A DNA stretch of 3,815 nt from Escherichia coli (GTDB lineage: Bacteria; Pseudomonadota; Gammaproteobacteria; Enterobacterales; Enterobacteriaceae): the NCBI RefSeq assembly GCF_003334335.1, contig NZ_QOWQ01000081.1; one strand, 5' to 3'. Each line of letters begins with the position of its first letter. Positions within the stretch are counted from its first letter, which is position 1. The translations under genes and the position numbers were made by a program. Below, one piece after another: positions 3,601 through 3,728 of this stretch. The notes under the pieces were generated by a model. That model saw only the letters and a list, made by a program, of their open reading frames with translations, searched no databases and had not been told where the DNA came from.

Positions 3601-3728
3601 CTTTGTAAGTATCCCACATAATAGAACCATTCACATTTAGAGATCTTCCGGCATACTCATTCGTAAGCGGCTCGCGAGGACTGTATTGATACTTACTGAG
3701 AGCTCAGATCAACTTTCCAGGGTGACAG

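Follow-up and report, generated by a model that had tools for sequence, protein, structure and literature searches.

The 3,815-bp stretch of Escherichia coli DNA analysed here (hereafter, the window) consists of an AT-rich gene of the AraC family surrounded by a patchwork of pieces from mobile elements, and its positions 3604-3728 are almost certainly a scar of nested transposition, built from the ends of two unrelated insertion sequences (IS) and later used as a target by IS3. Judging from homology, the segment is the left end of an IS3-family element joined to the right end of an IS66-family element, the two abutting at 3662/3663. The window belongs to a chromosomal island. Strain SW071611 matches it at 100% identity, and the 25-kb locus of this strain (L004) serves as the source locus in what follows.

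In the first-pass annotation, positions 3601-3728 had been treated as one piece of unknown origin that matched no IS terminus. This last statement was wrong, because the segment consists of two IS termini, and the single piece resolves into two unrelated IS ends. Its true boundaries are 3604, where the terminal TG of the IS3-family end lies, and 3728, while 3601-3603 are part of the AT-rich flank and not of the IS remnants. The identity and the boundaries of both remnants are established by homology and by the target duplications found around full copies of the corresponding elements. All three components belong to known kinds: the right end to the IS66 family, the left end to the IS3 family, and IS3 itself to canonical insertions that duplicate 3 bp. 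The segment is thereby explained and ordinary, with no new element in it. Genomic islands of E. coli commonly contain nested IS fragments. The overall significance of the segment is small, and consists of the replacement of a stretch of unknown origin by two annotated IS remnants, together with the exact definition of an IS3 insertion site and its target duplication.

The IS66-family right end

When 3601-3728 was compared by BLASTN with plasmids, only its right part was matched, in 2766 records, and the matches are located where genes annotated as transposases of the IS66 or ISCro1 family have their 3' ends. The stretch 3663-3728 shows 84-91% identity to ISCro1-type ends in thousands of records. 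In three ISCro1-type copies examined by alignment (L001-L003), the match, which is inverted, spans the last tnpC codons and the element's non-coding terminus, and the conserved terminus GTAAGCG is placed at window position 3663. A 5'-GTAAGCG/A start marks the ends of IS66-family elements, according to the ISfinder description of the family, and GTAAGCGGCTCG, which starts at 3663, aligns with the ends of all three copies. The complete element in L001 is bracketed by an 8-bp direct repeat, ATTTATAC, which lies directly outside GTAAGCG at one end and GTAACCG (read inward) at the other, and it is this duplication that identifies GTAAGCG as the end of the element.

From this end and from the tnpC matches, it follows that 3663-3728 (minus strand) correspond to the last 66 bp of an ISCro1-like element. 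A terminal inverted repeat occupies about 3663-3690, and after a short spacer come the stop codon of tnpC at 3694-3696 (TTA on the plus strand) and the last ten tnpC codons, encoding SPWKVDLSSQ, up to 3728. In fact, translation of the minus strand of 3694-3728, together with the DNA beyond the far end of IS3, yields ...GGEHAAVLYSLIGTCRLNNVEPEKWLHYVIEHIQDWPTNRVRDLSPWKVDLSSQ*, which matches the TnpC of ISCro1. Without the IS3 interruption the remnant measures 212 bp, of which 66 are in the window. At the DNA level it shows about 92% identity to copies of the ISCro1/IS679 type, and at the protein level it specifies the C-terminal 59 residues of TnpC, which depart from the ISCro1 protein at only three positions.

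The likeness to ISCro1/IS679-type elements therefore lies in the order of the parts (a GTAAGCG terminal repeat followed inward by the tnpC stop and the C-terminal codons), in a nucleotide identity of 84-92% to ISCro1-type copies and in the near identity of the C-terminal 59 TnpC residues. In contrast to those elements, the piece lacks tnpA, tnpB and the left end, and cannot transpose. Only the last 59 codons survive from the tnpA-tnpB-tnpC set; the piece is the remnant of a family member and not a functional member. The left part of the element was not found within the source locus, and the 8-bp duplication could be confirmed only around the complete copy L001, which served as reference. The terminal repeat also carries private substitutions, reading TCGCGAGGACT where the consensus is TCGTCAGAACC.

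Some similarity to L001 and L002 continues outside the terminus (CTTCCGG and neighbouring bases), and it was considered as a longer IS end or a target preference. This was rejected because the 8-bp duplication of L001 ends at GTAAGCG and the flank of L003 is unrelated; chance extension of this sort is expected, as the listed matches are the best few among thousands.

The IS3-family left end

The remaining 59 bp (3604-3662, plus strand) were found by a sensitive search, a low-stringency BLASTN of 3382-3728 against 5426 complete E. coli genomes, in which they formed a separate set of matches with exactly these bounds. They occur in three unrelated settings, beside yjcB, beside clbA in the pks island and in an island of O157:H7, and in all of them the stretch is located about 20 bp upstream of the start of a gene annotated as an IS3 family transposase. 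Identity reaches 94.9% over 59 bp with positions 4001-4059 of L005, where the full copy (4001-5207) spans 1207 bp between two copies of ATTA, a 4-bp target duplication. Relatives covering positions 1-1207 of this copy are present in many genomes. When L005, L006 and L007 are aligned, homology begins at TGTAAGTATCCC (TGTAAG, window 3604) and the outer flanks are unrelated, so that a terminal TG and an end common to complete elements in unrelated contexts coincide at this position. On these homologies, 3604-3662 run from the terminal TG through the left inverted repeat into the leader of an IS3-family element.

Past 3662, the full copies continue into a ribosome-binding site and the ATG of orfA, whereas the window continues into GTAAGCG. 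The remnant stops about 20 bp before that ATG, and nothing of orfA and orfB follows it, while full copies are annotated as IS3 family transposases with programmed frameshift. The right end of the element is absent here, the ATTA duplication was seen only in the full copy of L005, and the remainder of the element was not found within the source locus.

The element may be called IS1400/IS1351-like, a label taken from the naming of IS elements in the pks island, which have been designated IS1400 and IS1351, both of the IS3 family (PMC11707995); PGAP labels the full copies only as IS3 family transposase. Compared with an element of this type (1207 bp, with a related copy adjoining clbA), the remnant matches at 85-95% over its first 59 bp and shares the terminal TG, the leader and promoter-like hexamers, but it is cut before orfA and has no right end. 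Neither this remnant nor that of the IS66 family is mobile, because the transposase coding capacity is gone and a single end is left of each.

Insertion of IS3 into the tnpC remnant

The segment ends with CAG (3726-3728), the left copy of a 3-bp IS3 target duplication. From 3729 to 3815 (plus strand) the window holds the IS3 left inverted repeat, TGATCTTACAC..., and the start of the first open reading frame (ATG at 3794); this part is 95-99% identical to annotated IS3 copies, and the window ends inside the element. In the source locus IS3 extends to position 14443, where it ends with ...GGATCA. The arrangement there is ...GTGACAG|IS3|CAGATCGCG..., with CAG on both sides of IS3, and beyond the element CAGATCGCGTACCCGG... 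continues the ISCro1-type tnpC for about 147 bp. IS3 is located inside a Leu codon, 11 codons before the tnpC stop.

The empty site, ...GTGACAGATCGCG..., is present in a metagenome contig (L010) and in the complete genome of strain SW4848 (L012). When the left flank from the window is joined to the right flank from the source locus, leaving out IS3 and one CAG, the resulting string is identical to the empty site of SW4848. Queries spanning the junctions detected 37 filled and four empty sites in complete E. coli genomes, all at 100% identity, and these make up all 41 carriers of the locus among the 5426 genomes. The IS3 step is shown directly by these filled and empty alleles. The insertion coincides with canonical IS3 in every respect (ends TGATC...GATCA, a CAG direct repeat and filled and empty alleles) and differs from it in none; the target simply happened to be the remnant of another IS. 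The first-pass annotation had suggested that the segment could be what is left of the IS3 target, such as a gene edge or another mobile-element end, and had proposed to look for its continuation on the other flank of IS3. The suggestion was borne out and the continuation is there: the target is the 3' edge of an IS66-family tnpC beside its terminal repeat, and tnpC continues on the other side.

The coexistence of both alleles indicates that IS3 was inserted after the island lineage had been founded, and the alleles could serve as a lineage marker for the island. Those without IS3 at window position 3729 have it elsewhere in the island, e.g., next to the equivalent of window position 1312. The IS3 copies concerned occupy positions 1-57 of L010 (OGXX01003089.1, reverse complement) and positions 1-1086 and 4154-5316 of L012. 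From these other positions it follows that IS3 has moved repeatedly within the island lineage.

Composition, palindromes and promoter-like sites

The GC content is 0.261 in 3382-3603 and 0.438 in 3601-3728, with 0.306 in the coding sequence of the regulator, which confirms that the segment has a composition unlike the adjacent AT-rich DNA. Within the segment it is 0.373 at 3604-3662 and 0.500 at 3663-3728, and the break in GC content coincides exactly with the IS terminus. The palindromes that had been pointed out are also where they were placed: AGATCT at 3641, TCGCGA at 3672 (within CTCGCGAG, which starts at 3671) and the inverted repeat CTGAG-AG-CTCAG at 3696. As a signal, however, they were rejected, since their counts are no higher than in shuffled versions of the same 128 bases (three 6-bp palindromes observed against 2.0 expected, with at least three in 33% of the shuffles, and one inverted repeat with 5-bp arms against 0.9 expected). 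These GC values and counts bear out the shift in composition and give the palindromes no significance. Neither AGATCT nor TCGCGA is kept in other copies of the same insertion sequences, and CTGAGAGCTCAG is the coding sequence of the last TnpC residues.

Promoter-like sites are present at chance frequency, three in the stretch against 2.5 in shuffles. One of them, TTCACA-16-CATACT at 3630-3657 (plus strand), is located inside the IS3-family remnant, points into the element and away from the regulator, and is kept in full copies of the element; it is probably the predicted transposase promoter of that element. A terminator scan of the stretch yielded no terminator-like site, and an Rfam scan of 3300-3815 gave nothing meaningful, its one match being to a snoRNA model with E = 0.69, far below the gathering score.

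The regulator, its upstream DNA and alternative explanations

The AraC-type gene of the window (2584-3381, minus strand) encodes a divergent, chromosomal regulator of the AggR/Rns(CfaD)/VirF group, with 30-44% identity to plasmid-borne members; another search with the regulator gave only generic AraC-type matches, below the cut-off. At the DNA level, neither the gene nor its upstream region was found on any plasmid searched. The AT-rich DNA between its start codon and the first IS junction (3382-3603, GC content 0.26) matched only the 41 carriers of the locus in the low-stringency BLASTN against complete E. coli genomes. No allele without the two older remnants was detected: the 28-mer 3576-3603 led to four metagenome contigs, all with the same junction at 3604, and an upstream 32-mer, searched in the GTDB species-representative genomes, led to a single contig that likewise carries this junction. 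This 2263-bp contig (L013, JAIJJM010000532.1), from a metagenome-assembled genome named 'Collinsella sp.', is 99.8% identical to window positions 1576-3815, including the IS mosaic, and is probably E. coli contamination of the Collinsella bin.

The first-pass annotation had offered as another option that the segment belongs to the native distal control region of the regulator. Such DNA could, for example, contain upstream activator or H-NS sites. Regulators of the AggR/Rns family can use distal upstream sites, and the segment does lie 223-347 bp upstream of the start codon. Nevertheless, both of its halves recur in E. coli as IS ends away from any AraC-family gene, one half encodes the C-terminus of TnpC, and the composition breaks exactly at an IS terminus. 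Native control DNA is unsupported here, because all of 3604-3728 derives from insertion sequences, and the idea deserves hardly any credence. The BLASTN comparisons with plasmids and complete E. coli genomes returned IS66 ends for the right part and IS3-family ends for the 59 bp, and revealed no IS-free relative carrying the segment as native upstream DNA. It is just as improbable that the segment is a small non-autonomous element of the MITE type, or one end of some element not yet characterised. Its small size, its non-coding nature where it now lies and the IS-like termini that bound it would suit such an element, but these termini come from two different families of IS and do not form a pair of inverted repeats, no target duplication flanks them, and the 128 bp never occur as a unit outside this locus in the E. 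coli genomes and plasmids searched.

A further explanation is that the debris has been co-opted, either as a promoter or insulator that alters the regulator or through the site at 3630-3657, which would drive transcription into IS3. The retention of this site in full copies and the unchanged state of the mosaic in 41 genomes could be read in this way. However, promoter-like sites are no commoner here than in shuffles, the one conserved site points away from the regulator, and a recent common ancestry of the island accounts for the identity among the 41 genomes, all of which makes co-option very unlikely. The best-supported reading takes the segment for inert debris of nested IS elements within a genomic island, most likely devoid of function.

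The only plausible effect of this debris is the displacement of whatever was once located more than 222 bp upstream of the regulator. The native upstream DNA that survives at this gene amounts to 222 bp (3382-3603), a hard limit which is useful to anyone studying its promoter. That the IS pile-up, by replacing the distal upstream region, has altered expression of the regulator compared with an IS-free ancestor, with consequences for linked genes as well, is a doubtful proposal. If it were true, the debris would matter through what was removed or insulated, and the genes affected would include those for an aat-like ABC/TolC exporter and Afa/Dr-type fimbriae, provided that the regulator controls them. 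In the source locus, a region about 4-12 kb from the regulator (16286-25316) encodes an ABC transporter, a TolC-family protein and a permease (an aat-like set), as well as the AfaD invasin and a fimbrial usher. The regulator and these linked genes suggest an adhesin regulon on the chromosome, which only 41 of the 5426 complete E. coli genomes possess.

Proposed order of events

We infer the order and the mechanism of the two older events. The first occupant would have been an IS1400/IS1351-like element of the IS3 family, whose left end was situated 222 bp upstream of the regulator's start codon. An ISCro1-like IS66 element, its right end turned towards the regulator, would then have come to abut this element 59 bp inside that end, through either insertion or a rearrangement alongside. 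Because the remainders of both elements are absent from the 25-kb source locus, there is no target duplication to tell an insertion of the IS66 element from a joining by deletion or recombination. The rest of both elements would subsequently have been lost, so that 59 bp remained of the IS3-family element and 212 bp of the IS66 element. As the last step, IS3 entered the 3' remnant of tnpC, duplicating CAG and splitting the 212 bp into 66 bp and about 147 bp.

Other features of the window and the island

The opposite end of the window is also made of mobile-element fragments. A second IS66-family element, which is divergent and has only about 67% identity to ISCro1, contributes its 3' end at positions 1-290 (plus strand). 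Its terminus ...CGCTTAC ends at 290, and an open reading frame at 75-260 encodes the C-terminus of TnpC (...LLYGLIGTCRLNGIDPEAYLRHILSVLPEWPSNRVDELLPWN...). From 291 it is abutted by an IS600-like orfB fragment, so that 291-810 contain the C-terminal part of an IS3-family orfB (open reading frame 280-759), annotated by PGAP as an IS600 family transposase pseudogene. A 302-aa open reading frame at 800-1708 (minus strand) represents an internal fragment of the passenger domain of a serine-protease autotransporter, and is annotated in the source genome as an EspI pseudogene without both ends. It is followed at about 1709-2563 by a degenerate IS5-family transposase pseudogene with frameshifts and internal stops, which includes poly-C runs at about 2146-2153 and 2245-2250.

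Outside the window, positions 1-9303 of the source locus, directly upstream of the IS patchwork, encode a type I restriction-modification system in which a DarT/DarG toxin-antitoxin pair is embedded between the genes for the S and R subunits. On the other side, after the tnpC remnant of about 147 bp, positions 14593-15717 hold an IS481-family transposase gene and a fragment of a group II intron maturase. About 750 bp of this region (15056-15806 in the coordinates of the source locus) are missing from contig L010, and further IS-related indels therefore segregate here.
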